From an uncultured Clostridia bacterium (GTDB lineage Bacteria > Bacillota > Clostridia > Christensenellales > Pumilibacteraceae): DNA of 17,079 nucleotides. Position numbers and translations under genes: made by a program. Within the stretch, counting starts at the first letter, position 1; each line of letters starts with the position of its first letter. The DNA lies in NCBI GenBank assembly GCA_947581755.1, contig CANPVN010000033.1, positions 1 through 17,079 on the forward strand, in the 5' to 3' direction. The notes under the pieces are model-generated. The model made no database searches and was not told the origin of the DNA. It worked only from the letters and a program-made list of their open reading frames with translations. Shown here piece by piece: positions 319-17,079 of the stretch.

Positions 319-394
<76 letters not shown>

Positions 395-4175: not shown

Positions 4176-6272
4176 TTATTCCATAACTATCTTGTTCTTG
4201 CCCTTCATGAGTTTTATGGTACGATTTACGTCGCCGCTGACGTTGTAGACGATGACCATAGCGTCGAGTTTGGTGTCGTTATCGATGATGAGTACTGTCT
4301 TTTCGCCGTCTTTGTAGTAATCTCCTTTGATTTTTCCGTCGGGAGTCATCGCGGAGAACTTCATATAATCGAGGTCGGCTATCGCGGGAGTTATGACGAC
4401 TTTCTTGCCGCCGTCCTTTACGGTGACTCCGCCGAAGCAAGCGAGCAAAGTATAGATGGGCATAGCCGAGTGGAGACAGCACTGTTCCCCCTCGAGCCAA
4501 AAGTTTTCGGGCATGGAAGGCGAGGCGTTACGCGCAATGGAATAGTATCTGTTCTTCAAACGAATTGCCGCCAATCTGTGCCGTCCCAATTTGCACAACG
4601 CTTCTATGATATAGCACTCGGTATAGATCGAAGCGTTCTGCGCCGAACTCAGGAACGCCGCCAGGACGTCCTTGTTTCCGTCGGGTGTAAGGTCGGTAAG
4701 CACGGCAAAGGCGTTGGCTCTGTCGTCGCAGACTTTTCCCGACGAGAATATCGAGCCGTTGAAGAACTTTCCGACTATGGCGTTTTTGATGAGATTCATG
4801 CTGTTGTCTATGAACGAAGTATCCTCTATGCCGTTTCTCGAAGCAAGTTCTTTGGCATATCTCAGACAGGAGTAGTACAGTACGTTTTCGGTAACTTCTA
4901 CGTCGAAGTTGTCGGTCTCGACATGAGCGTCTATCCTCGAAACGACCAATCCGTTGTTGTTTATCTTCCAATTTGCGAGATATTTGACTACGCAGTCGTA
5001 AATTCTCTTGTCAAGGTCTCCGTAAGAGTCGGTGTACGCCGCAAAGAACCCGAACTCACTGCAACACAGCAGTCCCGAAAAAGGATCCTCGTTGGGTCTG
5101 TAAAGAGCGTCCTGCTTGAGCATGCCCGACTTTTCGGCTTGAATGAGAGTATCGCAAATCTGCTTTCTTACCAAGGAGACTCCGCCCTCACCGTAAGCCA
5201 TCATCAAATCTCTCGCGGCGACGACACAGTCGAAGAAATCGCTCGACGGCGCGGAATAGACCGAGACGAACCTGTCGGAAATGCACGCCGAGAGCGTGGA
5301 CGCGCTCTTTTTGAATATCGCGTTGAGTACGGGGTCGCTGCAATCGAATACCGCTTTCATGTCCTCGCCGAAGCGCAAGGTATGGTATGTCAATTTTTTG
5401 AGTTTTATATCTTTGGGAGTCTCGACGACCAACCTGTCTCCCATAACGGAAAAGTAAGGGAACGCGAGATGATTTTCGTTCATTTTACCGATATATTTTT
5501 GATTTTTCTCGGGGTGTTCGCCGTAGAACAGAATTTCCGTCTTGGCTCTGTCGGAGTGAAAGGAAAAGGCGGGATATACTCGCTTATGCTCGTCGAATTT
5601 GACGGTATAGATGTTTTTATCCACCGTAGAAGTCTTTACGGGTTTAGCCTTCACGGGCTTTTCGGAAAAGGCAAAAGCGGGAATGGGGCGAAGAGAAAGC
5701 GGCAAAACGCTCTCGTCGTAAGCGCCCTGTTCCTCTGCGTCGGAAAAGATATTCGAGGCGTAATGCAAACTCATGAGTCCGTCCAACGAGTTCTCCAACG
5801 TCGCGTCGTACTGCCAGAAGGAATCCGAAAAGGTTGCGGAATCCTTGACGAACTCCACCCAGGACACGGGAGCGCATTCGAAGGTAGCGTCGGAACTCAA
5901 TACGACCTTGTCTGAGCTTACCGCCTCGAAAATGAACTTGGGAGAGGCGTTGAGCGCGCCGCCGTTTTCGACGGGCGTGTGTTCGCAAATAAATACGAAT
6001 ACGTTTTCTCCCTTCGTCACGAACTTGGAAATATCCACTTGATCGTAGTAGTCGGCAACATTGCTCGTCATTCCGCCGTTGCGGACGACGAACTTGCCGT
6101 CTTTTTTCTTGTTGCCGATATTAAAGAAGTACCTTGTAGAGCAAGCTATGCGCGCCGTAAGTTTTTTGGGCTTCTTTTCGAAATTTATTTTTTTTCTGAA
6201 AATTACAAATTCGGGTTTGTCGAGGGCGTTTTTGCGCCATATCCACTTAGCCTCGGAAAAAATATTTGCCAT
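4176..6272 (-). CDS. Large glycoside hydrolase, probably of the six-hairpin (alpha/alpha)6 type and possibly alpha-L-rhamnosidase (GH78)-like.
   Basis: 698-aa ORF with a perfect RBS AAGGAGA 8 nt upstream. The N-terminus ...SEAKWIWRK... resembles the A-x-WIW start of Bac_rhamnosid_N domains. There is no signal peptide. The family assignment comes from memory of motifs and has not been verified. Confidence 0.45.
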   Translation of the reverse strand: MANIFSEAKWIWRKNALDKPEFVIFRKKINFEKKPKKLTARIACSTRYFFNIGNKKKDGKFVVRNGGMTSNVADYYDQVDISKFVTKGENVFVFICEHTPVENGGALNASPKFIFEAVSSDKVVLSSDATFECAPVSWVEFVKDSATFSDSFWQYDATLENSLDGLMSLHYASNIFSDAEEQGAYDESVLPLSLRPIPAFAFSEKPVKAKPVKTSTVDKNIYTVKFDEHKRVYPAFSFHSDRAKTEILFYGEHPEKNQKYIGKMNENHLAFPYFSVMGDRLVVETPKDIKLKKLTYHTLRFGEDMKAVFDCSDPVLNAIFKKSASTLSACISDRFVSVYSAPSSDFFDCVVAARDLMMAYGEGGVSLVRKQICDTLIQAEKSGMLKQDALYRPNEDPFSGLLCCSEFGFFAAYTDSYGDLDKRIYDCVVKYLANWKINNNGLVVSRIDAHVETDNFDVEVTENVLYYSCLRYAKELASRNGIEDTSFIDNSMNLIKNAIVGKFFNGSIFSSGKVCDDRANAFAVLTDLTPDGNKDVLAAFLSSAQNASIYTECYIIEALCKLGRHRLAAIRLKNRYYSIARNASPSMPENFWLEGEQCCLHSAMPIYTLLACFGGVTVKDGGKKVVITPAIADLDYMKFSAMTPDGKIKGDYYKDGEKTVLIIDNDTKLDAMVIVYNVSGDVNRTIKLMKGKNKIVME

Positions 6273-7751: not shown

Positions 7752-8366
7752 TTATTTTAACGGCTCCACAACAAGAGTGCTTTCGCCGATCACGTCGGTG
7801 ATTTTGACTTGAGAGCCCGTCTTGATAGGCTCTTCGCAATCGGTGATCGCGTCTCTCTCGATGAGAGTGTCCTGAATAACGACATTGACTTTTCCCATGC
7901 CTTTGCGAGAAGCGGGCACGGTAAGATAAACTTCACCGACTTTTCCCAGAGCGTTTTTGAGAGCGATATTGCCGTTGCTCTGAAGTTTCATAATGCTCTT
8001 CAAAAGGAAAGCGACGCCGACGGCAGCCGCCGCGCCCACCGCCAAACCTATAAGCAAAGCCGCCCACCAAGGCAAAACAAACGCCATAGTGTAAGCCATC
8101 CAACCGCCGACCGCAAGAAAAGCAAGCGCAGACCTCAACGACAAAACTCTCAACCCCGCTGCGGAACTTATGCCCTCGTCGTTGGCAAGATCCACATCGT
8201 CAAGATCTCCTCCGTCATAATCGAAGGAAGTATCGTCTCCGCCCATTCCGATTATCATAAGAATTATCTGCACGATCATGACAAGCGTCGCGGCAGCCGC
8301 TATGATAAACAAAACACGCTGGAACTCGGTGTTGGAATTCCACCAACTCGAAACGGATAAAAACAT
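7752..8366 (-). CDS. NfeD-family membrane protein (N-terminal TM helices plus a C-terminal OB-fold), the partner of flotillin.
   Basis: 204 aa. It has three hydrophobic segments followed by a beta-rich soluble tail (GKVGEVYLTVPASRKGMGKVNVVIQDTLIERDAI…VKITDVIGESTLVVEPL) typical of the NfeD short form. Its position directly upstream of flotillin supports the call. Confidence 0.7.
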   Translation of the reverse strand: MFLSVSSWWNSNTEFQRVLFIIAAAATLVMIVQIILMIIGMGGDDTSFDYDGGDLDDVDLANDEGISSAAGLRVLSLRSALAFLAVGGWMAYTMAFVLPWWAALLIGLAVGAAAAVGVAFLLKSIMKLQSNGNIALKNALGKVGEVYLTVPASRKGMGKVNVVIQDTLIERDAITDCEEPIKTGSQVKITDVIGESTLVVEPLK

Positions 8367-8563
8367 TTCTCTTCACTCCCTGCTTTCAAATTTAGGGTAT
8401 AGATAAGTCTATACATAATTAAGTATAACACAATATAATACGATTTTCCACTGTTTTGAGATAGAATTTGTAAATTTCACAATATTCCCGCCCACCCTTT
8501 CGACGGATTTCCCCCTTCTCCCTCTCTCCCTTCCCCTTACCGTTTTTTCCCCTACCTTATACC

Positions 8564-8740
8564 TTGGCTCCCATTGGCTCAATTTCCCCTCCCGACCTTT
8601 TCTTGGCTCCCCTTGGCTCAATTTCCCCTCCCGACCTTTTCTTGGCTCCCCTTGGCTCAATTTCCCCTCCCTACCTTTTCTTGGCTCCCCTTGGCTCAAT
8701 TTCCCCTCCCTACCTTTTCTTGGCTCCCCTTGGCGGCTTC
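8564..8740. repeat. Tandem array of a 39-bp unit, ttggctccccttggctcaatttcccctccc[g/t]accttttc. Four full copies (starting at 8564, 8603, 8642, 8681) and a fifth degenerate copy follow with no spacers.
   Basis: The exact 39-bp period was counted directly. Copies 1-2 have cccgacc and copies 3-4 have ccctacc. The unit contains ggagccaagg and is derived from family module A (…aaagggagccaagg). Confidence 0.9.
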
Positions 8741-9060
8741 GCCTTTCCTTCCTTCTCTCTTGGCTCCCTTTGGCGGCTTTTGCCGCCAAGGGGAGCCGGC
8801 GCCAATCAATCTAACCTTTTTCTTACCTCGTCAAAAAGTTTAACTTTTTGACGAAAGAGGAGCAGTCGCCTGTAAGAGGCTGCTTTTGACGCTTGTCGGA
8901 AAAAGAGCCTGACAACGGCGTACTGCGACGAGGCTGAGGGGATTAATTATTCGCACAATCCCCCGAACGCGGAAGTCACGCTTGAATTAAAATTCAAGCA
9001 ACTCGCGATTTTGGGTGCAGCGTCACGCTGCCTGAGGGGATTATAATCAATCCGACTTTT
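8741..9060 (-). repeat. Composite mosaic repeat element in reverse orientation: A (8741-8800), H'-type hairpin block with cgtcaaaaag..ctttttgacg (8806-8930), P palindrome (8933-8965), X (8961-9032), P (9033-9058).
   Basis: Its reverse complement aligns module by module with the plus-strand element at 10321-10598, with the modules in a different order. Confidence 0.8.
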
Positions 9061-9093
9061 TGGGTGAATTGTCAAGTGAAGCGCAACAGTAGT

Positions 9094-9132
9094 AAAAAAA
9101 GGCAAGCGTAAAATTTTCTTTTTACGTTTGCC
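9094..9132 (-). terminator. Rho-independent terminator of the rubrerythrin gene.
   Basis: On the minus strand a 13-bp stem (GGCAAACGTAAAA / TTTTACGCTTGCC, one mismatch) with a 5-6-nt loop is followed by TTTTTTT. It lies 40 nt downstream of the stop codon. Confidence 0.55.
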
Positions 9133-9173
9133 TTATCGATGAAAAAAATCGGTCTTATGTACGCGAATAGGTC

Positions 9174-9725
9174 TTATTTGAAATATCTTTTCAAGAAGCC
9201 CTCAAACGCCTTGCCGTGGCGGGCTTCGTCTCTTGCCATTTCGTGAACGGTGTCATGGATAGCGTCGAGTCCGAGTTCCTTTGCTCGTTTTGCAAGATCC
9301 GTCTTGCCTGCGGTTGCGCCGTTCTCCGCCTTTACTCTCATTTCGAGATTGGTCTTTGTGGAGTCGGTTACGACTTCGCCCAAAAGTTCGGCAAATTTAG
9401 CGGCATGTTCTGCTTCTTCGTAAGCAGCCTTTTCCCAATACATGCCTATTTCGGGATAGCCTTCTCTGAAAGCGACTCTTGCCATAGCAAGATACATACC
9501 TACCTCACAACATTCTCCGTTGAAATTAGCGCGCAATCCCTCGACAACATCCTCGGGAACTTCGGGTTTTCTGCCCACTCCGACAACGTGTTCGGAAGCC
9601 CAAGACATCTGTCCTTCGACAACTTCGACGAACTTCTCGCCCGGAGCCTTGCAAAGAGGGCATTTATCGGGTCTTACATCGGATTCGACGATTTCACCGC
9701 AAACGGTACATCTCCATTTTTTCAT
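9174..9725 (-). CDS. Rubrerythrin-family protein with an N-terminal rubredoxin-like Cys4 domain (CxxC…CxxC) and a C-terminal ferritin-like diiron domain (a reverse rubrerythrin arrangement).
   Basis: 183 aa. It has CTVCGE…CPLCKA at the N-terminus, and E…EEAEH and E…DEARH diiron ligand motifs in the C-terminal half. RBS AGGAGGA lies upstream. Confidence 0.85.
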
Positions 9726-9765
9726 AAATAAAAATCCTCCTGAAAAATAAGATTTATCGGCTATA

Positions 9766-9794
9766 ATGATACCCTAACCCGCAAAAAATGTCAA
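9766..9794 (-). promoter_or_regulatory. Sigma70-like promoter for rubrerythrin: TTGACA -17 nt- TATCAT, read on the minus strand.
   Basis: The -35 element is the reverse complement of tgtcaa at 9789-9794. The -10 element is the reverse complement of atgata at 9766-9771. The spacer is exactly 17 nt, and the site is about 40 nt upstream of the ATG. Confidence 0.45.
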
Positions 9795-9854
9795 GTCTTT
9801 TCTCACCCCAACCCGACATTGTCGTTAAACAATCCCCGCCCTTATATTATATAA

Positions 9855-10062
9855 GGTCTATTTATTATAACAATCCCTTCAGTCGTGCATAAGCACGACA
9901 GCCACCCTTACTGCGTCGCAACAGTCGCTTTGAGACTCTCTTTTCGCTATCGCTAAAAGAGGAGTCTTTTATGCTCCGTTGCTCCTTTTTAACCGAAAAG
10001 ATAAACTTTTCGGTTAGTTTTTTTATAAGGTTGATTTATTATAATAGCCCCTTCGGGAAAAG
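9855..10062 (-). repeat. Mosaic element copy in reverse orientation: P remnant plus S hairpin gtcgtgc-ataa-gcacgac (9862-9900), H2 (9905-9975), H1 (9976-10030), P (10031-10062).
   Basis: Its reverse complement is nearly identical to plus-strand positions 20-146 of this window. Confidence 0.85.
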
Positions 10063-10084
10063 AATTAGCTATTATCTTCAGCGG

Positions 10085-10310
10085 CCCTGCCGCTGGCCGC
10101 CCTTGGCGTAAGCTAAGGGGGGGGCTGTCACCGAAGGTGACCGGGGGGATTTCGATTATGCAAATCCCCACGAACGCGGAAACCACGCTTGAAGTAAAAA
10201 CCGCCAAATCGCGAACTGTGCCCGCGGCGGCTCGCCGCCTCTTTTAGCGATAGCGAAAAGAGAGTCTCAAAGCGACTGTTGCGACGCAGTAAGGGAAGCT
10301 GTTGCCGCTT
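10085..10310 (-). repeat. Mosaic element segment: A-variant ggccgcccttggcg, hairpin gtcacc-gaag-ggtgac, P palindrome, variant X9 (10166-10239, ending in hairpin ggcggc-tc-gccgcc), and a partial inverted H2 (10239-10305).
   Basis: It is colinear with 13785-13930, where the hairpin is instead ggcaccc-tcc-gggtgcc and X ends in gcagcg-tca-cgctgc. Confidence 0.7.
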
Positions 10311-10320
10311 GTCGGCAACT

Positions 10321-10598
10321 GAAGGGATTGTTTATTTTATAATCCCCTCAGTCTCGTCGCAACACGACATTATGAGTCGCTTTTGCCGACAAGCGTCAAA
10401 AGTCTCCTCTTTAGGTCGGTTGCTCCTCTTTCGCCAAAAAGGTAAACTTTTTGACGAGGTAAGAAAAAGGTTAGATTGATTGGCGACAGCTCCCCTTAGC
10501 GGCAAAAGCCGCCAAAGGGAGCCAAGGCAGCGTGACGCTGCACCCAAAGTCACGAGATAGGTGATTGCTAATTCAAAGTTGATTTCCGCGTTCAAAGG
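10321..10598 (+). repeat. Mosaic element: P (10321-10350), H' block (10352-10483, hairpin cgccaaaaag-gtaaa-ctttttgacg), A (10488-10526), X3 (10527-10598).
   Basis: A near-identical P-H'-A block lies at 16216-16413. Confidence 0.85.
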
Positions 10599-10620
10599 TT
10601 GTACTAATATCTAATAAATA

Positions 10621-10955
10621 ATGCTCTTGACATTAAAAGCGTCGTGGAGGTTCGGAACCCCATCGCATCGTCGCAACTGTCGCTTTTGAGACTCTCTTTT
10701 TCGCTTTGCTCAAAAGAGGAGTCTTTTATGCTCCGTTGCTCCTCTTTCGTCAAAAAGGTAAACTTTTTGACGAGGTAAAAAGGTCGGATTGTTATAAACA
10801 ATCCCTTCAGTCTGCTATTAGCAGACAGCTCCCCTTAGCGGCAAAAGCCGCCAAAGGGAGCCAAGGGGTTGTGCGTACAACAGTCTCCGTTCGCGGAAAC
10901 CCTGTCGGAGTTAAAATTCAAGCAAATCGCGACTATGGGTGCAGCGTCACGCTGC
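10621..10955. repeat. Mosaic element cluster: module T (10621-10670; also found reverse-complemented at 16580-16640), a hybrid H2/H' block (10668-10790), P (10784-10810), S hairpin gtctgc-tatta-gcagac (10809-10825), A (10828-10866), and X4 in reverse (10884-10955), which abuts the cadA-like stop codon.
   Basis: The module order here again differs from the other copies. X4 ends 1 nt from the ATPase stop at 10956. Confidence 0.8.
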
Positions 10956-12923
10956 TTATTTATTATTCACATTCATTGAGTTCAAAATTGCAATCACAGC
11001 CACTCCCACGTCGCCGAATACAGCCATCCACATATTGGTTATGCCGAAAGCCGAGAGGATAAGGATAGCGGCTTTGACGACGAGCGAGAAGATAATATTC
11101 TCGTAGACGACGCGCATGGTTTTTTTGGCTATGCGTTTGGCGATGGGGAGCCCGTTGAGGTCGTCTCGCATGAGAACGACGTCGGATGCTTCGATAGCGG
11201 CGTCGCTGCCCACGCCGCCCATTGCGATACCTATATCGGAGCGCATGAGGACGGGAGCGTCGTTGATGCCGTCACCGACGAAGCAGAGAGCTTGGGAGTT
11301 TTGTTTTTCAGCGAGGAGTTTTTCGACCTCGGCGACTTTATCGGCGGGCATGAGAGAGGCTTTATAGCCGCTCAATCCGAGGGTGCGGGCGACGGAAGAT
11401 GCGATTTTCTCGTTATCGCCCGTCAGCATAAAAGTTTTGCAATTCATATTGCGGAGTTCTCGGATAGCCTGTTGAGATTCGGGTTTTATCTCGTCGGAAA
11501 AGAGCATGGAGCCGACGAATATCCCGTTATGCGCCACATAGACCACGGTGCCCGCGCCTTGAGTCTCGACGAAGTCTACATTATAAGCTCTCATCAATTT
11601 TTCGTTGCCGCAGAGAATGAGTTCATCGCCTTTTTTCGCGGCGATACCCTTGCCCGAAATATCGGAAAGGACATACCCATCCTCGACTTTTCCGTTGTAA
11701 GAAGCGACGATAGACCTTGCTATGGGGTGCGAAGAATCGCGTTCCGCGATGGCGGCAAGCCTCAAGATTTCCTCTTTTTTATCGGCGGGAGAGAGTTGCG
11801 AGAGCGCAAAATTTCCCTTTGTCAGCGTGCCCGTCTTGTCGAAAACGAAGATATTCGCCTTGTTGAGTTTTTCGAGATAGTTCGAACCTTTTACGAGTAT
11901 CCCTTGCCGCGAAGCCGCGCCTATTCCGCAAAAGAAGGACAGCGGTATGGAGATGACAAGCGCGCAGGGGCACGAGACCACCAAAAAACTCAACGCTCTG
12001 TACACCCAAGTCATCCAATCTCCCGTCACGAGCCCGGGAATCAAAGCCAACAACAGCGCTATTCCCATAACCGAAGGCGTGTAATATTTGGCGAAAACCG
12101 TTATAAAGTTTTCCGACTTCGCTTTTTTGTCGGAAGCGTTCTCCACAAGCTCGAGAATTTTGGAAACGGTGCTGTCGTAAAACGCCTTTTCCACGCGTAT
12201 CTCGAGTTGAGAGGTGAGATTGACGCACCCGCTTATGACTTCGTCGCCCGTAAAGACTTCCCGAGGAAGCGACTCTCCCGTCAACGCCTTGGTGTCGAGA
12301 CTCGAATTTCCCTTGATTATAACGCCGTCAAGAGGCACTTTTTCTCCGGGGTTTACGAGAATAGTCTCTCCGACAGAGACCTCGCTCGGATCCACCGTCT
12401 CGATTCCGCTTTCGCGCTTAACAACGGCGCAATCGGGACGAAGTTCCATAAGCGCGGAGATGGATCTACGCGAACTGCCCGTCGCGTATCGCTGAAACCA
12501 CTCGCCCGTCTGATAAAACAACAATACCGCGCACGCCTCGTCGAATCCCTCGAGTTCCATTCCGCTCACCCCTCGATATATCGCAAGCCCGAAAGCCCCG
12601 AAAGTGGCTACGCACATAAGAAAATTCTCATCGAAAATCTGCCCGTGCGCAATGTTTATCGCCGCCTTGCGGAATATGTCGTAACCTATGAATACATATA
12701 TCGCAAAATATAAGCAGAAAGGCAAAAGCCAACAATATCTCCCCGAGAATACTCCCCCCAAGTTTATCGCCTTGTCCGTCGCAAACAACGCGACAAACAA
12801 CACAAACGCAGTTATTATGCGAATGAGAGCGTTCCGCTCCCTTCTGCCGAGTCGTCTCCTCATAGCCTCTTGCTTGCCCCCTATCCCCGAATTATCCTGC
12901 AATCGGGCTCTACCTTGCGACAA
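10956..12923 (-). CDS. cadA: Heavy-metal-translocating P1B-type ATPase of the Cd2+/Zn2+/Pb2+ class (CadA/ZntA-like). As annotated here it lacks the N-terminal HMA domain.
   Basis: TM6 carries the CPC motif (VVSCPCALVISIPLS). It also has the phosphorylation site FDKTGTLT, the hinge GDGINDAP, and an actuator domain TGES. The maximal ORF starts at TTG 12923. The first ATG is at 12863 (MRRRLGRRERN…), preceded by AAGAGG, which would give about 635 aa. Confidence 0.85.
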   Translation of the reverse strand: MSQGRARLQDNSGIGGKQEAMRRRLGRRERNALIRIITAFVLFVALFATDKAINLGGVFSGRYCWLLPFCLYFAIYVFIGYDIFRKAAINIAHGQIFDENFLMCVATFGAFGLAIYRGVSGMELEGFDEACAVLLFYQTGEWFQRYATGSSRRSISALMELRPDCAVVKRESGIETVDPSEVSVGETILVNPGEKVPLDGVIIKGNSSLDTKALTGESLPREVFTGDEVISGCVNLTSQLEIRVEKAFYDSTVSKILELVENASDKKAKSENFITVFAKYYTPSVMGIALLLALIPGLVTGDWMTWVYRALSFLVVSCPCALVISIPLSFFCGIGAASRQGILVKGSNYLEKLNKANIFVFDKTGTLTKGNFALSQLSPADKKEEILRLAAIAERDSSHPIARSIVASYNGKVEDGYVLSDISGKGIAAKKGDELILCGNEKLMRAYNVDFVETQGAGTVVYVAHNGIFVGSMLFSDEIKPESQQAIRELRNMNCKTFMLTGDNEKIASSVARTLGLSGYKASLMPADKVAEVEKLLAEKQNSQALCFVGDGINDAPVLMRSDIGIAMGGVGSDAAIEASDVVLMRDDLNGLPIAKRIAKKTMRVVYENIIFSLVVKAAILILSAFGITNMWMAVFGDVGVAVIAILNSMNVNNK

Positions 12924-13102
12924 GTCTTTTCTACCTTTTTCATTATCTCCTCAAAACCGTCGTCATCCGCATCTATCGAAAGCCGCTGAGTCACAAAACT
13001 GACGCTCGCGTCCCTTACTCCCTCTATCTTGAGTATGCTTCGCTCCATCTTCGCCGCACAGTTCGCGCAGTCCAAATCTTCCAATCTGTATACCTTTTTC
13101 AT
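12881..13102 (-). CDS. Heavy-metal-associated (HMA) domain protein with a CadA-type CANC metal-binding motif. It is either a stand-alone metallochaperone or the detached N-terminal domain of the downstream ATPase.
   Basis: 73 aa: MKKVYRLEDLDCANCAAKMERSILKIEGVRDASVSFVTQRLSIDAD… shows a ferredoxin-like HMA fold pattern with CxxC (CANC). Its stop (TAG 12881-12883) lies 18 nt before ATG 12863 of the ATPase. It overlaps the maximal ATPase ORF by 43 nt in a different frame. Confidence 0.7.
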   Translation of the reverse strand: MKKVYRLEDLDCANCAAKMERSILKIEGVRDASVSFVTQRLSIDADDDGFEEIMKKVEKTCRKVEPDCRIIRG

Positions 13103-13229: not shown

Positions 13230-13571
13230 TTATTTATCCTCGTTAACATGGGTGAGTCCGTACTCCATAATTTTGGTGACGTGGTCGTCATCGAGGGAAT
13301 AGCGGACTTCCTTGCCCTCTTTGGTGCCCTTGACGAGTTTTGCGCCGCGCAACACGCGGAGTTGATGAGATACCGCCGAAATAGTCATGTTGAGCGTGTC
13401 GGCAATTTCTCCTACATACATGTTGCGAATTTGCAAACAAGAAAGAATCTTTACGCGCGTGGAGTCGCCGAACATCTTGAACAAATCGGCAAGTTCGTAC
13501 ATCTCATCCTCACTCGGCAACGCAGCCGCCGCTTTGCCCGCTTTCTTTATATCCTCGACGCCTTCGCCCAT
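13230..13571 (-). CDS. ArsR/SmtB-family metal-responsive transcriptional repressor (CadC-like).
   Basis: 113 aa from ATG 13571 (MGEGVEDIKK…), with RBS AAGGAGAGAGG upstream. A winged HTH region (STRVKILSCL…VGEIADTLNMTISAVSHQLRVLRGAKLV…GKEVRYSL) is diagnostic of the ArsR family. The six-frame track extends the ORF to a TTG at 13592. Confidence 0.8.
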   Translation of the reverse strand: MGEGVEDIKKAGKAAAALPSEDEMYELADLFKMFGDSTRVKILSCLQIRNMYVGEIADTLNMTISAVSHQLRVLRGAKLVKGTKEGKEVRYSLDDDHVTKIMEYGLTHVNEDK

Positions 13572-13592
13572 AAGCCCTCTCTCCTTTGACAA

Positions 13593-13653
13593 ATATTTGA
13601 ACGTTCAATCAACTGTTCAATAATATTATATGCTCTCCATTACCCCATGTCAA
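13593..13653 (-). promoter_or_regulatory. Sigma70-like promoter (TTGACA -17- TATAAT) plus a palindromic operator (TTGAACAGTTGATTGAACGTTCAA) for the ArsR-family gene. This is the classic autoregulatory layout.
   Basis: The -35 element is the reverse complement of tgtcaa at 13648-13653. The -10 element is the reverse complement of attata at 13625-13630. The spacer is 17 nt. ttgaacgttcaa (13597-13608) is a perfect 12-bp palindrome lying between the -10 and the RBS. It resembles the TGAACA..TGTTCA operators of SmtB/CadC regulators. Confidence 0.55.
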
Positions 13654-13689
13654 GCAAAAAATCAAAAAAACTCTAACCTTTTATGTGTT

Positions 13690-14098
13690 ATCCCACCCCG
13701 ACCTTATGCCTTGGTCCCCTTTGCTCCCTTTGGTGGCTTCGCCTTTCCTTCCTTCTCTCTTGGCTCCCTTTGGAGCCTTTTTCTTGGCCGCCCTTGGCGA
13801 CAGCTAAGGGGGGCTGGCACCCTCCGGGTGCCTGAGGGGATTTGTTGTTTGAACAATCCCTTGAACGCGGAAACCACGCCTGAATTAAAAGCAACCTCTG
13901 CCGCGACCATGGGTGCAGCGTCACGCTGCCAAAAGCGATATAAAAGGACGCATTGCGACGCGGATAAGGGGAGCTGTCGCCGTTTTACGGCGACTGAGGG
14001 GATTTGTTATTTGAACAATCCCTTGAACGCGGAAACCACGCCTGAATTAAAAGCAACCTCTGCCGCGACTGTGGCAGTGGCGGCTCGCCACTGCCGCC
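13690..14098 (-). repeat. Mosaic element cluster. It holds degenerate duplicated A modules (13716-13800), hairpin ggcaccc-tcc-gggtgcc (13816-13834), and two direct P-X units 155 bp apart (P 13838-13860 with X5 13858-13929; P 13993-14025 with X6 14020-14098). The two X copies end in alternative terminal hairpins.
   Basis: The two units are identical over about 75 bp (gaggggatttgtt…ctctgccgcgac) and then diverge: …catgggtgcagcgtcacgctgcc versus …tgtggcagtggcggctcgccactgccgcc. Confidence 0.85.
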
Positions 14099-14101
14099 AA
14101 C

Positions 14102-14134
14102 AAAAAAAGGACTCCCTTTCGGAGTCCTTTTTTT
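14102..14134. terminator. Bidirectional Rho-independent terminator that ends the minus-strand surface-protein operon.
   Basis: A perfect 7-bp stem GGACTCC/GGAGTCC with loop CTTTC is flanked by AAAAAAA upstream and TTTTTTT downstream. Confidence 0.65.
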
Positions 14135-14143
14135 GTTGGGTTA

Positions 14144-14317
14144 TTTTGACAATTCGACGGAAGATTGCCTTGTCTTGTCCTTTTTCTCGTTCTTTTGGGA
14201 GCGATGAGCAAAGAACAAGCATGCAAGCGCCGCGGCAAGCGCTACCGCATTAACAGCCGCAAGAGCGATCGCCGCGCCCTTCAATGTCGAAAACGCCGCT
14301 GCAATCAAGGTAAACAT
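14144..14317 (-). CDS. Small (58 aa) single-pass membrane protein with an Ala-rich TM helix and a Lys/Arg-rich cytoplasmic tail. It is not in the six-frame track because it is under 60 aa.
   Basis: Hand-translated from ATG 14317: MFTLIAAAFSTLKGAAIALAAVNAVALAAALACLFFAHRSQKNEKKDKTRQSSVELSK*. It starts 30 nt after the upstream gene stop and has a weak RBS AAGGGA. It ends just before terminator 14102-14134. Confidence 0.4.
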
Positions 14318-14346: not shown

Positions 14347-14856
14347 TTATTCGGCATCAACGGCTGAGGCAGTGAAAGTAAGAGTATCGGTGTAAGACTC
14401 TCCGCCCGTGGAATAGTTAGCGGCAGTATCTTTCATATTTGCTGTTAAAGTTTCAGATCCGGTTGGTGTTCCTGCTTCTACTTCAAGAACCGTATTGTTA
14501 GAATCGTTGTCTAAAGTGGTTCCGCCTTTTTTGAGTTCATAATCAAGTTCTTTGTCTCCGCTTTTTACTTTCCAGCCATTTGCGCTGCTTACGGTGACCT
14601 TTAATTTTTTGCCTTTCTCGATTTTGACTTCACTTGCAGAAACAGTAATCGGATCTTGTCCGCCGATAGTGATCGTTTCGGGAATTGTGACTTTCCAAGC
14701 ATCTTCTGCACTGTAAGTTACTGTCGTTGTGCTTGCGCCTTTTCCGTTATCGACTTTTGTTTCAGCCGAAGCGACGTTGACCGCGCCGAGCGATCCTGCG
14801 AGCGCCAACGAAAGCATAGCCGTAGCGCCCAGAAGTACCAAGTTCTTCTTTTTCAT
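14347..14856 (-). CDS. Secreted beta-rich surface protein with a signal peptide and a WxL-like C-terminal region (GWKV … YTDTLTFTASAVDAE).
   Basis: 169 aa. The N-terminus MKKKNLVLLGATAMLSLALAGSLGAVNVASA is a typical Sec signal. Good RBS AAGAGG. The mature part is Thr/Ser/Val-rich, which fits a beta-sandwich. Two W-K-V motifs and a C-terminal Y-T-x-T-L-T-F-T pattern resemble the WxL domain consensus (Y-x-G-T-L-T-W-T-L). Confidence 0.55.
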   Translation of the reverse strand: MKKKNLVLLGATAMLSLALAGSLGAVNVASAETKVDNGKGASTTTVTYSAEDAWKVTIPETITIGGQDPITVSASEVKIEKGKKLKVTVSSANGWKVKSGDKELDYELKKGGTTLDNDSNNTVLEVEAGTPTGSETLTANMKDTAANYSTGGESYTDTLTFTASAVDAE

Positions 14857-14908: not shown

Positions 14909-15412
14909 CTATATTACAGTCAGCGCGACGACCGCGGAGACGTTGTTCGTGGGAGAAAGATCGCTCATGCGGTAAGGCTGCACCAAAAGTTGCGCCTTAT
15001 ATTCTCCCGCGGCAAGCCCGTGAGATAACGTCACCTGATAGATATGTTTGCCGGGCGCAACATAGCCCGTCTCGAAAAGGACTTCGGAGCCGCCCTCTCC
15101 GTCGGGGAGCGTCAATGTAAACGTCATATAGTACAGTCCGTTGTTCTCGATTGGGTTATAAAGATCTATTGCGACAGTTTCGAGTTCGGACAGAACAGTC
15201 AGTGTGGAGAATCCCGCCACGGTGACTCCCGGAGTCGAAGTTTGTCCTTGATTGGGTCGCTCGTCCGTTGCGTTCGGATCGAAAACGACGCCGCCCGTTG
15301 TCAGTCTCGGCTCTTCCATTCCCGCCACACAAAACAGCAGAATGACGTCGAACAGCAAAAGAAGGGCAAGCGTTATGGATGAAACTGTAATTAAAACTCG
15401 TTTTTTGTTCAT
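14909..15412 (-). CDS. N-terminally membrane-anchored (or signal-peptide) extracytoplasmic protein of unknown function. It is the first gene of the surface-protein operon.
   Basis: 167 aa. Strong RBS GGAAGGAG. One N-terminal hydrophobic helix is followed by a Pro/Thr/Gly-rich linker and a beta-rich domain. No recognisable catalytic motif was found. Confidence 0.55.
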   Translation of the reverse strand: MNKKRVLITVSSITLALLLLFDVILLFCVAGMEEPRLTTGGVVFDPNATDERPNQGQTSTPGVTVAGFSTLTVLSELETVAIDLYNPIENNGLYYMTFTLTLPDGEGGSEVLFETGYVAPGKHIYQVTLSHGLAAGEYKAQLLVQPYRMSDLSPTNNVSAVVALTVI

Positions 15413-15547
15413 GAGACTCCTTCCTCTTCTTCAAAAATATCGCAAAAATTCATTGCTCCCGAATTTTCGCCGTACAAGAAAGGCTCTTGTTAAGTCCTCT
15501 TTCCTTATGTTCTTCGGAAAAGTACAATATTAGTATACTAAAGTATT

Positions 15548-15575
15548 TTGACTTTGTCAAGCATTTTTTTACAAT
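15548..15575 (+). promoter_or_regulatory. Sigma70-like promoter for the XRE regulator gene: TTGACT -16- TACAAT.
   Basis: ttgact at 15548-15553 and tacaat at 15570-15575, in the divergent intergenic region shared with the minus-strand operon. Confidence 0.4.
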
Positions 15576-15621
15576 AGTAAAATAAAATTTGACAAAAGAG
15601 GGAATAATTTTGGGGACAACC

Positions 15622-15915
15622 ATGTTGAACGAAAATATTCGTGGATTGAGAAAGGTGCGACATTTGAGTCAGGTAGAACTTGCGAAGGGCTTGAATGTCA
15701 GCAAACAGTGCGTTTCGAATTGGGAAAACGACAATATTCTTCCCTCGGTGGAAATGCTTGTGAAGATTGCAAAGTTTTTCGGGGTCTCCACGGACGCCCT
15801 TCTCGGAATAGATAATAAAAAGACCGTCTATGTTGACGGTCTTTCCGACGTACAAATCGATCACATCAAACTTCTGATCGAAGATTTGAAGAGAACGAAC
15901 GAAGCCTCTCTTTGA
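15622..15915 (+). CDS. XRE-family (Cro/CI-type) helix-turn-helix transcriptional regulator.
   Basis: 97 aa from ATG 15622 (MLNENIRGLRKVRHLSQVELAKGLNVSKQCVSNWENDNILPSVEMLVKIAKFFGVSTDALLG…). The motif Q-x-x-LA-x-x-x-x-VS-x-x-x-VSNWE is the canonical XRE HTH. The six-frame track starts it at TTG 15589. Confidence 0.8.
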   Translation: MLNENIRGLRKVRHLSQVELAKGLNVSKQCVSNWENDNILPSVEMLVKIAKFFGVSTDALLGIDNKKTVYVDGLSDVQIDHIKLLIEDLKRTNEASL

Positions 15916-15924
15916 ATATAAAAA

Positions 15925-16215
15925 AATCCCTTCAGTCGTGCATAAGCACGACAGATTCCCTTGCTAAGGGAAGCCACGGGTAGTGCGAATCCCCGACTTT
16001 GTTTTTTTAGCCGCCCGTGGTTCCCGCACCCCTTTGACTCCTTTATAATTGGAAATATAGAAATGAAATTCTATTAAAAGTTTTCGTATTAAAATACCTG
16101 GTTCAATGTTACTTTTCATGCTCTGAAAAGTAACCAAAAGGGCAGTGTGACGCTGCACCCATAGTCGCGAGTTGCTTGATTTTTAACTCAAGCATATTTC
16201 CGCGTTCGCGGGACA
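15925..16215 (+). repeat. Repeat cluster: P remnant plus S hairpin gtcgtgc-ataa-gcacgac (15925-15961, identical to 9870-9898), a family-unrelated hairpin-rich segment (15962-16140), and X7 (16141-16212).
   Basis: Direct sequence identity with the other copies. The central segment has its own hairpins (ccacggg…cccgtgg; ttccctt-gcta-agggaa; gttacttttc-atgctct-gaaaagtaac). Confidence 0.7.
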
Positions 16216-16413
16216 GTGCGAATAACAAATCCCCTCAGTCTCGTCGCAACACGACATTATGAGTCGCTTTTGCCGACAAGCGTCAAAAGTCTCCTCTTTA
16301 GGTCGGTTGCTCCTCTTTCGTCAAAAAGGTAAACTTTTTGACGAGGTAAGAAAAAGGTTAGATTGATTGGTACCAGCTCCCCTTAGTGGCAAAGCCACCA
16401 AAGGGAGCCAAGG
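16216..16413 (+). repeat. Mosaic element: P (16207-16248), H' block (16232-16372), and A (16375-16413) in its variant form ttagtggcaaagccaccaaaggg.
   Basis: Near-identical to 10335-10526 except for a compensatory stem change in module A. Confidence 0.85.
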
Positions 16414-16439
16414 CATAAGGTTTGATTTTGCTCCCGAAG

Positions 16440-16640
16440 GGGCCATTATAATAAATCAACCTTATAAAAAAACTAACCGAAAAGTTTATCTTTTCGGTTA
16501 AGAGGAGCAACGGAGCATAAAAGATTCCTCTTTTGAGCGATAGCGAAAAAGAGAGTCTCAAAGCGACAGTTGCGACGATGCGATGGGGTTCCGAACCTCC
16601 ACGACGCTTTTAATGTCAAGGGCATTAATTATATAAATAA
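16440..16640 (+). repeat. Mosaic element: P (16440-16459), H1 (16460-16515), H2 (16516-16577), and T in reverse (16578-16640).
   Basis: H1+H2 match positions 27-146 of this window. T is the reverse complement of 10621-10670. Confidence 0.85.
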
Positions 16641-16854
16641 AACCTTATGTCTGTCTAGCTTTTGGGGTTCACTTCAGTTTGAGTTGTTTACAGATTGTAA
16701 TCAACTGCGGATTGCGTCGCAACGCCACCGCCCGATTACAGTCAAAAGTTTATTTATTAATAATATAAACGAGCCGAAAAAAAGAAGCAGTTTCGGGAAA
16801 ACAAATCGCCCACGGATATACAACACTCGCAGGCGATTTTTTTTATTAATTATT

Positions 16855-17023
16855 AAGGTTGGATTGTTTATAATCCCCTCAGGCACCCGAAGGGTGCCGG
16901 CTCCCCTTAGCGGCAAAGCCGCCAAAGGGAGCCAAGGAAATACGACTAATTCCTTGAACGCGGAAACCACGCTGTTGTTAAAAAAAACCTCTGCCGCGAC
17001 CATGGGTGCAGCGTCACGCTGCC
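16855..17023. repeat. Mosaic element: P (16857-16880), hairpin gcaccc-gaa-gggtgcc (16881-16897), A (16895-16932), and X8 in reverse (16952-17023).
   Basis: The modules are as elsewhere. X8 equals X5 except for the internal loop (ttgttaaaaaaaacc versus tgaattaaaagcaacc). Confidence 0.85.
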
Positions 17024-17079
17024 TCGACAACGTATTGCGAAGTTTATTCTATATAATAAAGAAACGAAGCGAAGAAACG

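Follow-up and report, generated by a model that had tools for sequence, protein, structure and literature searches.

A perfect 58-bp inverted repeat within a mosaic of hairpin-forming intergenic repeats in an uncultured Clostridia bacterium

Genes and repeat modules of the window

All supported genes between positions 401 and 13592 of the window, by which we mean the whole 17,079-nt stretch of DNA analysed here, lie on the minus strand. They encode, among others, a CvpA-like protein, an MMPL transporter, an SPFH protein, rubrerythrin and a cadmium-type operon (Table 1), whose P-type ATPase has its nearest relatives (72-74% identity) in gut Clostridiales MAGs. The only Rfam match in the window at gathering score is a tRNA-Met outside the repeat region, and relaxing the threshold to E <= 10 within 8400-11000 gave nothing credible.

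Several open reading frames, 108-698 aa long, have no significant match in Pfam or NCBIfam: 13630-14253 (+), 14347-14856, 14909-15412, 15538-15864, 7752-8366 and 4176-6272 (-). The last has only a sub-threshold Pfam match (Bac_rhamnosid6H, E = 0.00026, below the curated cutoff). The frame at 13630-14253 runs across repeat modules and is probably spurious; the remaining ones may be lineage-specific genes.

Comparison of the window with itself revealed 13 repeat blocks that amount to 2925 nt (17% of the window) and lie outside the Pfam-supported genes. The repeats are confined to five long intergenic regions (1-263, 8550-9059, 9847-10955, 13719-14094 and 15919-17039), all of which are assembled as mosaics from a common set of hairpin modules in both orientations. 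The recurrent units include two larger ones, A and B. Unit A (about 160 nt, made of modules H2, H1 and T) is found at 9903-10065 (+), 10663-10812 (+), 156-1 (-) and 16577-16425 (-); further copies, which have diverged, lie at 10340-10526 (+), 16228-16415 (+) and 8945-8759 (-). Of unit B (about 100 nt) the window has nine copies, in both orientations. Smaller modules, namely T, X, a 'G' hairpin and a variable hairpin 'h', join the A and B units in varying order.

A 39-nt tandem repeat (4.4 copies, 98% identity, 8563-8734) lies inside a minus-strand open reading frame at 8409-8789, whose translation consists of GEPRKGREGKLSQ repeats and matches no family. The array probably belongs to the repeat system and is no gene, since its unit includes GGGAGCCAAG, which is part of the module 'G' hairpin.

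The repeat system around the inverted repeat appears to be undescribed. We found no description of such repeats in the literature on REP and RAYT in Clostridia or Ruminococcus. The H2 core pattern had no match in IMG/VR, the GTDB representatives or the JGI metagenomes, an absence that is weak evidence because the organism is barely sampled (its public record is a few low-coverage contigs, and only three short ones of low coverage were found). A degenerate pattern of the P3 hairpin described below likewise had no match in the JGI metagenomes. A six-frame pseudo-protein of 9847-10955, aimed at spurious open reading frames called in other repeat copies, gave no hit at E <= 0.001 among 5.8 billion proteins, and the whole intergenic region had no blastn match among the PLSDB plasmids.

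Table 1. Coordinates of the features discussed in the text, as positions in the window
Feature	Position	Strand	Description
tRNA-Met	319-394		
Rubrerythrin	9174-9725	-	
Rubrerythrin promoter-like site	9794->9766	-	TTGACA-17-TATCAT, 11/12; outside the inverted repeat
T module	9847-9882	+	AT-rich; ends in AATCCCTTCAG
Variable hairpin h	9882-9899	+	GTCGTGC-ATAA-GCACGAC within the constant context AATCCCTTCA-[h]-AGC
Left arm	9905-9962	+	9-nt junction CCCTTACTG and H2 core (9914-9962); 5' part of a complete A element
A-element fold	9918-10017	+	P1 9918-9922/9978-9982; P2 ~9932-9944/9955-9968; P3 9989-10017, then T7
First part of the core	9963-10092	+	H1 (9963-10020), second T module (10021-10054), short GC hairpins
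X module	10094-10135	+	10094-10199 matches 13785-13890
B module	10136-10238	+	Ends in variant terminal hairpin GCGGCG-GCT-CGCCGC (10224-10238)
Right arm	10238-10295	-	Solo truncated reverse H2 copy, without H1 partner
Right-arm outer extension	10296-10332	-	Linker, variant hairpin h' (10301-10319), half T module (10319-10332)
Third A copy (H2-H1-T)	10663-10812	+	Makes the H2 order +,-,+ with the two arms
Terminator-like site after ATPase	10804->10786	-	
GGGTGCAGCGTCACGCTGC hairpin at ATPase	10937-10955	+	Ends a partial B copy; abuts the ATPase stop codon (10956-10958)
All GGGTGCAGCGTCACGCTGC hairpin copies	9013-9031, 10527-10545, 10937-10955, 13911-13929, 16142-16160, 17004-17022		
Cadmium-type operon, P-type ATPase	10956-12923	-	
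Cadmium-type operon, HMA	12881-13102	-	
Cadmium-type operon, ArsR	13230-13592	-	

Geometry, content and fold of the inverted repeat

A preliminary description of this DNA had reported a perfect 58-bp inverted repeat at 9904-9961 and 10239-10296, bracketing 277 bp. The repeat itself is exact (58/58 complementary, each arm occurring once), but both intervals are one base off, so that they are not reverse complements when read literally; between the arms as placed in Table 1 we measured 275 bp. A repeat search widens the pairing to 65 nt at 97% (9898-9962 / 10238-10302), and gapped BLAST to 95 nt at about 89% (89.5%; 9869-9962 / 10332-10238). Folded as single-stranded DNA, the segment 9860-10340 reaches -163 kcal/mol, compared with -66 +/- 5 for shuffled sequences (z = -19.6). 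The inverted repeat is genuine and goes far beyond what chance would give.

Both arms are H2 modules, as had been proposed, and the H2 core is found five times in the window. The complete composite H2-H1-T-X-B spans 9905-10240, with the left arm as its 5' part. The first base of the right arm is the last base (10238) of the terminal hairpin of B (10224-10238). H2 alternates in orientation (+,-,+ at 9905, 10295 and 10669), and B also follows the order +,-,+ within 9905-10955.

What had been called the 277-bp core is no special sequence, because it consists of the remainder of the A unit (H1 and T), then X, then a B unit, all of which are repeated elsewhere. The order H2-H1-T occurs three more times besides the composite; 9914-10065 matches 16577-16425 (93.5%) and 156-5 (87.6%); the X-B pair recurs at 13785-13930; and, besides the T module at 9847-9882, copies of T lie at 10021-10054, 10775-10811, 15919-15934 and, in reverse complement, 1-38.

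On the left, the outermost part of the extended repeat is the last 14 nt of the T module (9869-9882), and this T half is identical in the outer flanks of both arms despite the differing h hairpin that each flank holds: the stem of h' (GTTGCCG-ACAAG-CGGCAAC, with the loop reading CTTGT as written at 10301-10319) is wholly different from that of the left h. The context AATCCCTTCA-[h]-AGC carries different stems at 10301-10319, in the right arm, and at 10810-10826, while a hairpin identical to the left h lies at 15935-15952, giving three unrelated stem sequences across these four sites (the left one at 9882-9899). The h hairpin has the look of a stem-loop cassette that is either exchangeable or rapidly evolving.

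We computed a consensus fold with RNAalifold from an alignment of seven copies of A. A first stem, P1, encloses a second, P2, and P3 comes next (Table 1). Compensatory double changes affect 10 of the 29 pairs across the seven copies, for example GCAAC/GTTGC to GCAGT/ACTGC in P1 and AACCG/CGGTT to CGTCA/TGACG in P3. The inner end of the left arm, at 9962, cuts through P2 and splits the two strands of P1. Because P1 and P2 of this fold span the arm boundary, the 58-bp arm is neither a structural unit nor a plausible mobile one. P3 of the left copy (9989-10017) was scored as terminator-like. In three of the seven copies of A (9989-10017, 16473-16501 in reverse complement and about 50-80 in reverse complement), P3 is followed by a run of six or seven T and resembles an intrinsic terminator, and the other four have a compensated stem and no T run. 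A hammerhead-like reading of CUGAGGGGAUU...GAAAC in module B was rejected by eye, and Rfam gave no match for it.

The location given in the preliminary description, between the rubrerythrin promoter and the metal-resistance locus, agrees with a strong promoter-like site of rubrerythrin on one side and the end of the cadmium-type P-type ATPase, at 10956, on the other. A scan restricted to the sigma-70-like consensus returned nine promoter-like sites in 8350-11050 and none within the core (9963-10237). Since it sits between the terminator-like site of the ATPase and the promoter-like site of rubrerythrin, the inverted repeat is unlikely to be included in the transcript of any gene. Its effects are therefore likely to be exerted at the DNA level, by cruciform or hairpin formation, replication pausing, or rare RecA-dependent inversion or deletion.

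The terminal hairpin of module B and known repeat systems

Module B usually ends in a 19-nt hairpin, GGGTGCAGCGTCACGCTGC, of which the window has six copies, all intergenic; five are exact and the sixth has one mismatch. This 19-mer occurs at no fewer than 115 loci among the GTDB representatives (L003-L117), where by our own estimate about 4 would be expected by chance. Most are from gut Clostridia: among the loci listed, 95 belong to Clostridia (of Ruminococcus, Oscillospiraceae, Acutalibacteraceae and Christensenellaceae type) and 12 to Verrucomicrobiota. It is also present in 33 IMG/VR contigs (L122-L154), with fewer than one expected by the same kind of estimate. The stretch conserved between genomes is only about 29 nt long, and the other modules are not widespread. 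Stem variants of the 19-mer keep their pairing through compensatory changes.

The hairpin is placed with precision and polarity. In 18 of 44 cases a convergent gene has its stop codon within 0-15 nt of the GCTGC side, whereas the GGGT side is never closer than 39 nt. It is found at distance 0 from the CCA end of a tRNA-Arg, a tRNA-Gly (twice), a tRNA-Trp and a tmRNA, and in viral contigs it fills spacers of the form stop-hairpin-(4-12 nt)-ATG. As at the ATPase of the window, it directly follows the stop codon of an ATPase homologue on another contig (L121). Copies that neighbour each other are mostly in direct orientation; where a pair is inverted, the GGGT sides always face each other. The wobble-pair counts of the two strands of the 19-mer (11 vs 7) do not decide which of them folds. 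When the open reading frames within 3 kb of the 19-mer were clustered, no recurrent family emerged beyond unrelated housekeeping genes. The 15-mer hairpin sequence was not found in the literature, and no Rfam family matches the 19-mer.

A second allele of the terminal hairpin, G(C/T)GGCG-GCT-CGCC(G/A)C, has three copies in the window, also intergenic. They lie at 10215-10238, 14068-14091 and, in reverse complement, about 175-200; this allele (GGCGGC/CCGGCG-GCT-CGCC...) is also found at four of the loci in other genomes (L098, L103, L112 and L034). It co-occurs with the first allele, in some cases as a tandem that follows a repeated CGCGA(A) box. The co-occurrence of the two, in the window and in other Clostridia genomes, recalls the Y and Z REP types of BIMEs.

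In behaviour, this family comes nearest to REP/BIME clusters, with the pneumococcal BOX elements also close. REP sequences are short GC-rich hairpins with 5' GT[AG]G at the foot and have been described as species-specific (PMC6006769). Like the REP/BIME (REPIN) systems of Enterobacteria and Pseudomonas, the repeats studied here are extragenic, multi-copy short hairpins, arranged with linker motifs into mosaics of alternating orientation; their stems are kept by compensatory change, and the elements often lie just past stop codons. The terminal hairpin of B, with six copies of the 19-mer and three of the variant allele, fits the REP description of a short (21-65 nt), GC-rich, extragenic and multi-copy hairpin; the H2 arm, as part of a larger fold, does not. 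Other traits set the family apart. The GT[AG]G foot is missing, and GGGT stands before the conserved hairpin; at about 160 nt (A) and about 100 nt (B) the modules exceed those of REPs in size; they reside in a Gram-positive anaerobe of the gut; and the terminal hairpin is identical across many genera, unlike the species-specific REPs (PMC6006769). Nor did we find a RAYT: no Y1_Tnp match was seen among the open reading frames of the window, tblastn with three Y1 proteins (approximate query sequences) returned nothing in the window or the 115 loci, which is weak evidence, and Y1_Tnp is absent from the 25 most frequent of the 117 Pfam families in 114 neighbouring open reading frames. As the GT[AG]G foot is absent and no RAYT was found, membership in REP/BIME is not established.

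The resemblance to BOX is of another sort. The BOX elements of Streptococcus pneumoniae, a Gram-positive bacterium, are non-coding, modular intergenic repeats that fold strongly and keep the fixed order A-B(n)-C. Our family shares with boxA-boxB-boxC the modular intergenic organisation, the strong secondary structure and the Gram-positive host, but the sequences are unrelated, and module order and orientation vary here between sites.

The distribution of the terminal hairpin might point to an undescribed REP/BIME-like system of gut Clostridia, in which GCAGCGUGACGCUGC-ACCC would be the universal component, placed at the 3' ends of genes, tRNAs and tmRNA, the lineage-specific modules, H2 among them, would be cargo spreading and rearranging around it, and the inverted repeat would be a by-product. 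On that reading the hairpin would be common to Clostridia of the Oscillospirales type, to Verrucomicrobiota and to contigs that are classified as viral. We hold this broader scheme as tentative and rather doubtful in its entirety. More speculatively, a single-strand enzyme of the HUH type could recognise the hairpin, or the hairpin could serve as a signal for RNA processing; a hairpin with ACC behind it resembles a minimal substrate of RNase P or of the CCA enzyme.

Origin of the inverted repeat

On comparison of the H2 copies, the arms are each other's closest relatives. Their H2 cores are identical (49/49), whereas all other pairs of copies are 88-94% identical; they share two private single-base deletions, of one T and one C that are present in the other three H2 copies; and only the two arms carry the 9-nt junction CCCTTACTG upstream of H2. 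Given these shared private indels, the shared junction and the lower identity of the other copies, the arms derive from each other, in line with the earlier proposal of a recent event or gene conversion.

We therefore consider it probable that the inverted repeat is no element in itself and arose as a by-product of lineage-specific, modular, hairpin-forming intergenic repeats. We class it as a local rearrangement within a system of the general kind of interspersed mosaic intergenic repeats, ordinary for a region so dense in repeats. The family may spread as folded single strands, in the manner of REP/BIME. The right arm is a truncated reverse copy of the segment [T-half / h / H2], placed directly against the terminal hairpin of B. 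Two mechanisms could have produced the perfect arms. The first would be a recent local inverted duplication, for example by template switching at the many hairpins during replication. The second would be gene conversion over about 58-65 bp between two neighbouring copies in opposite orientation. The completely different h between two conserved pieces of the 95-nt repeat speaks against simple duplication, so that a simple recent duplication would be insufficient unless h was replaced afterwards. We infer duplication or conversion as the mechanism from these patterns; no enzyme able to move or convert the modules was identified in the window.

The arms might instead have been kept by selection, as one long hairpin with an RNA or DNA function (an insulator, a terminator or an RNase III site) that separates the cadmium operon from rubrerythrin. 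The fold is indeed very stable, substitutions in the family preserve structure, and some modules are terminator-like. Yet the compensatory changes back the local stems P1 to P3 and not the pairing of arm with arm, which is unique to this place; the positions of the terminator-like and promoter-like sites argue against transcription; and the two shared private indels are no better explained by selection than by common descent. We deem such a function unlikely.

Lower still stands the proposal, made in the preliminary description, of a non-autonomous, MITE-like mobile element about 390 bp long that has the arms as its terminal inverted repeats; these would be recognised by a transposase encoded elsewhere. 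The arm-core-arm layout, its intergenic position and its length of a few hundred bp do recall the Correia/NEMIS elements of Neisseria and the RUP of pneumococcus: long and perfect terminal repeats (58/58), a size typical of MITEs and an arm sequence with several copies in the window are what one would expect of such an element. But no target-site duplication accompanies the arm ends. We sought direct repeats at the 9905/10295 and 9898/10302 boundaries and found none, the sole one being TTTAT at 9866/10335, inside an AT-rich repeat module. The arm-core-arm composite has no second copy in the 17-kb window, none of the other H2 copies stands in such a pair, and the modules that make up the core each recur independently. 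The arms are fragments of a larger folded element whose conserved P1 and P2 are cut by their ends. H2 had no match in the three collections searched, and no IS, transposase or recombinase domain was seen among the window's open reading frames scanned. A transposon origin is not supported by these data, and we regard it as very unlikely.

We give just as little credit to an inverton, flipped through the 58-bp arms by a site-specific recombinase or by RecA and altering the expression of rubrerythrin or read-through from the cadmium operon. In known invertons, inverted repeats flank about 300 bp upstream of a gene, and the geometry seen here, in a gut bacterium, resembles that of invertons and of promoters of the fimS type; flipping would moreover put the terminator-like hairpin 9989-10017 and its T7 on the gene strand. 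However, the scan found no promoter-like site in the core, the strong one of rubrerythrin lies outside the repeat, and no recombinase domain was found in the 17 kb. The arms are copies of a dispersed repeat and no dedicated site, and perfect arms of 58 bp are longer than is usual for site-specific invertases.

Public contigs bear on the assembly itself. Independent short-read contigs (from ERZ27059539, ERZ27249206 and SRR27728189, at 3-4x coverage) match both flanks at 100% and then stop at the repeats. The contigs of the same organism (L001, L002, L118 and L119) all end at repeats and none spans the inverted repeat: L001 corresponds to 8858-9897 of the window and ends one base before the extended inverted repeat, and L118 ends about 29-30 nt past the ATPase stop codon, inside a 19-mer element. 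The contig with the 74% ATPase homologue from the same sample (L121) also ends about 30 nt past the stop codon, inside the 19-mer hairpin. The repeats thus explain breaks in the short-read assemblies of the organism. We also sought an empty site through the closest ATPase homologues (72-74% identity), whose loci are not syntenic; in one of them (L120) a radical-SAM gene lies 62 nt after the ATPase.

An assembly artefact, either a misjoin induced by repeats or a local fold-back, is the least probable explanation of all, for although no independent contig spans the repeat and the public contigs end at its edge, independent assemblies confirm both flanks at 100%, the core holds ordinary family modules in their usual order (X-B as at 13785-13930, H2-H1-T as at three more places), and fold-back artefacts usually are much longer palindromes that lack a structured spacer.

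Overall, the inverted repeat itself matters little, except that it marks a fragile place, prone to recombination, that separates a cadmium-resistance operon from an oxidative-stress gene. Of wider significance is the presence of dense mosaic repeats, at 17% of the window, in a Gram-positive gut anaerobe, as such systems have been described mainly in Proteobacteria. One hairpin of the repeat system is conserved well beyond the species level, precisely at the 3' ends of genes and tRNAs, and deserves a separate follow-up. If this hairpin is a site of enzyme recognition or RNA processing, it would open a way into the biology of 3' ends and the dynamics of repeats in the Oscillospirales, which are poorly studied.
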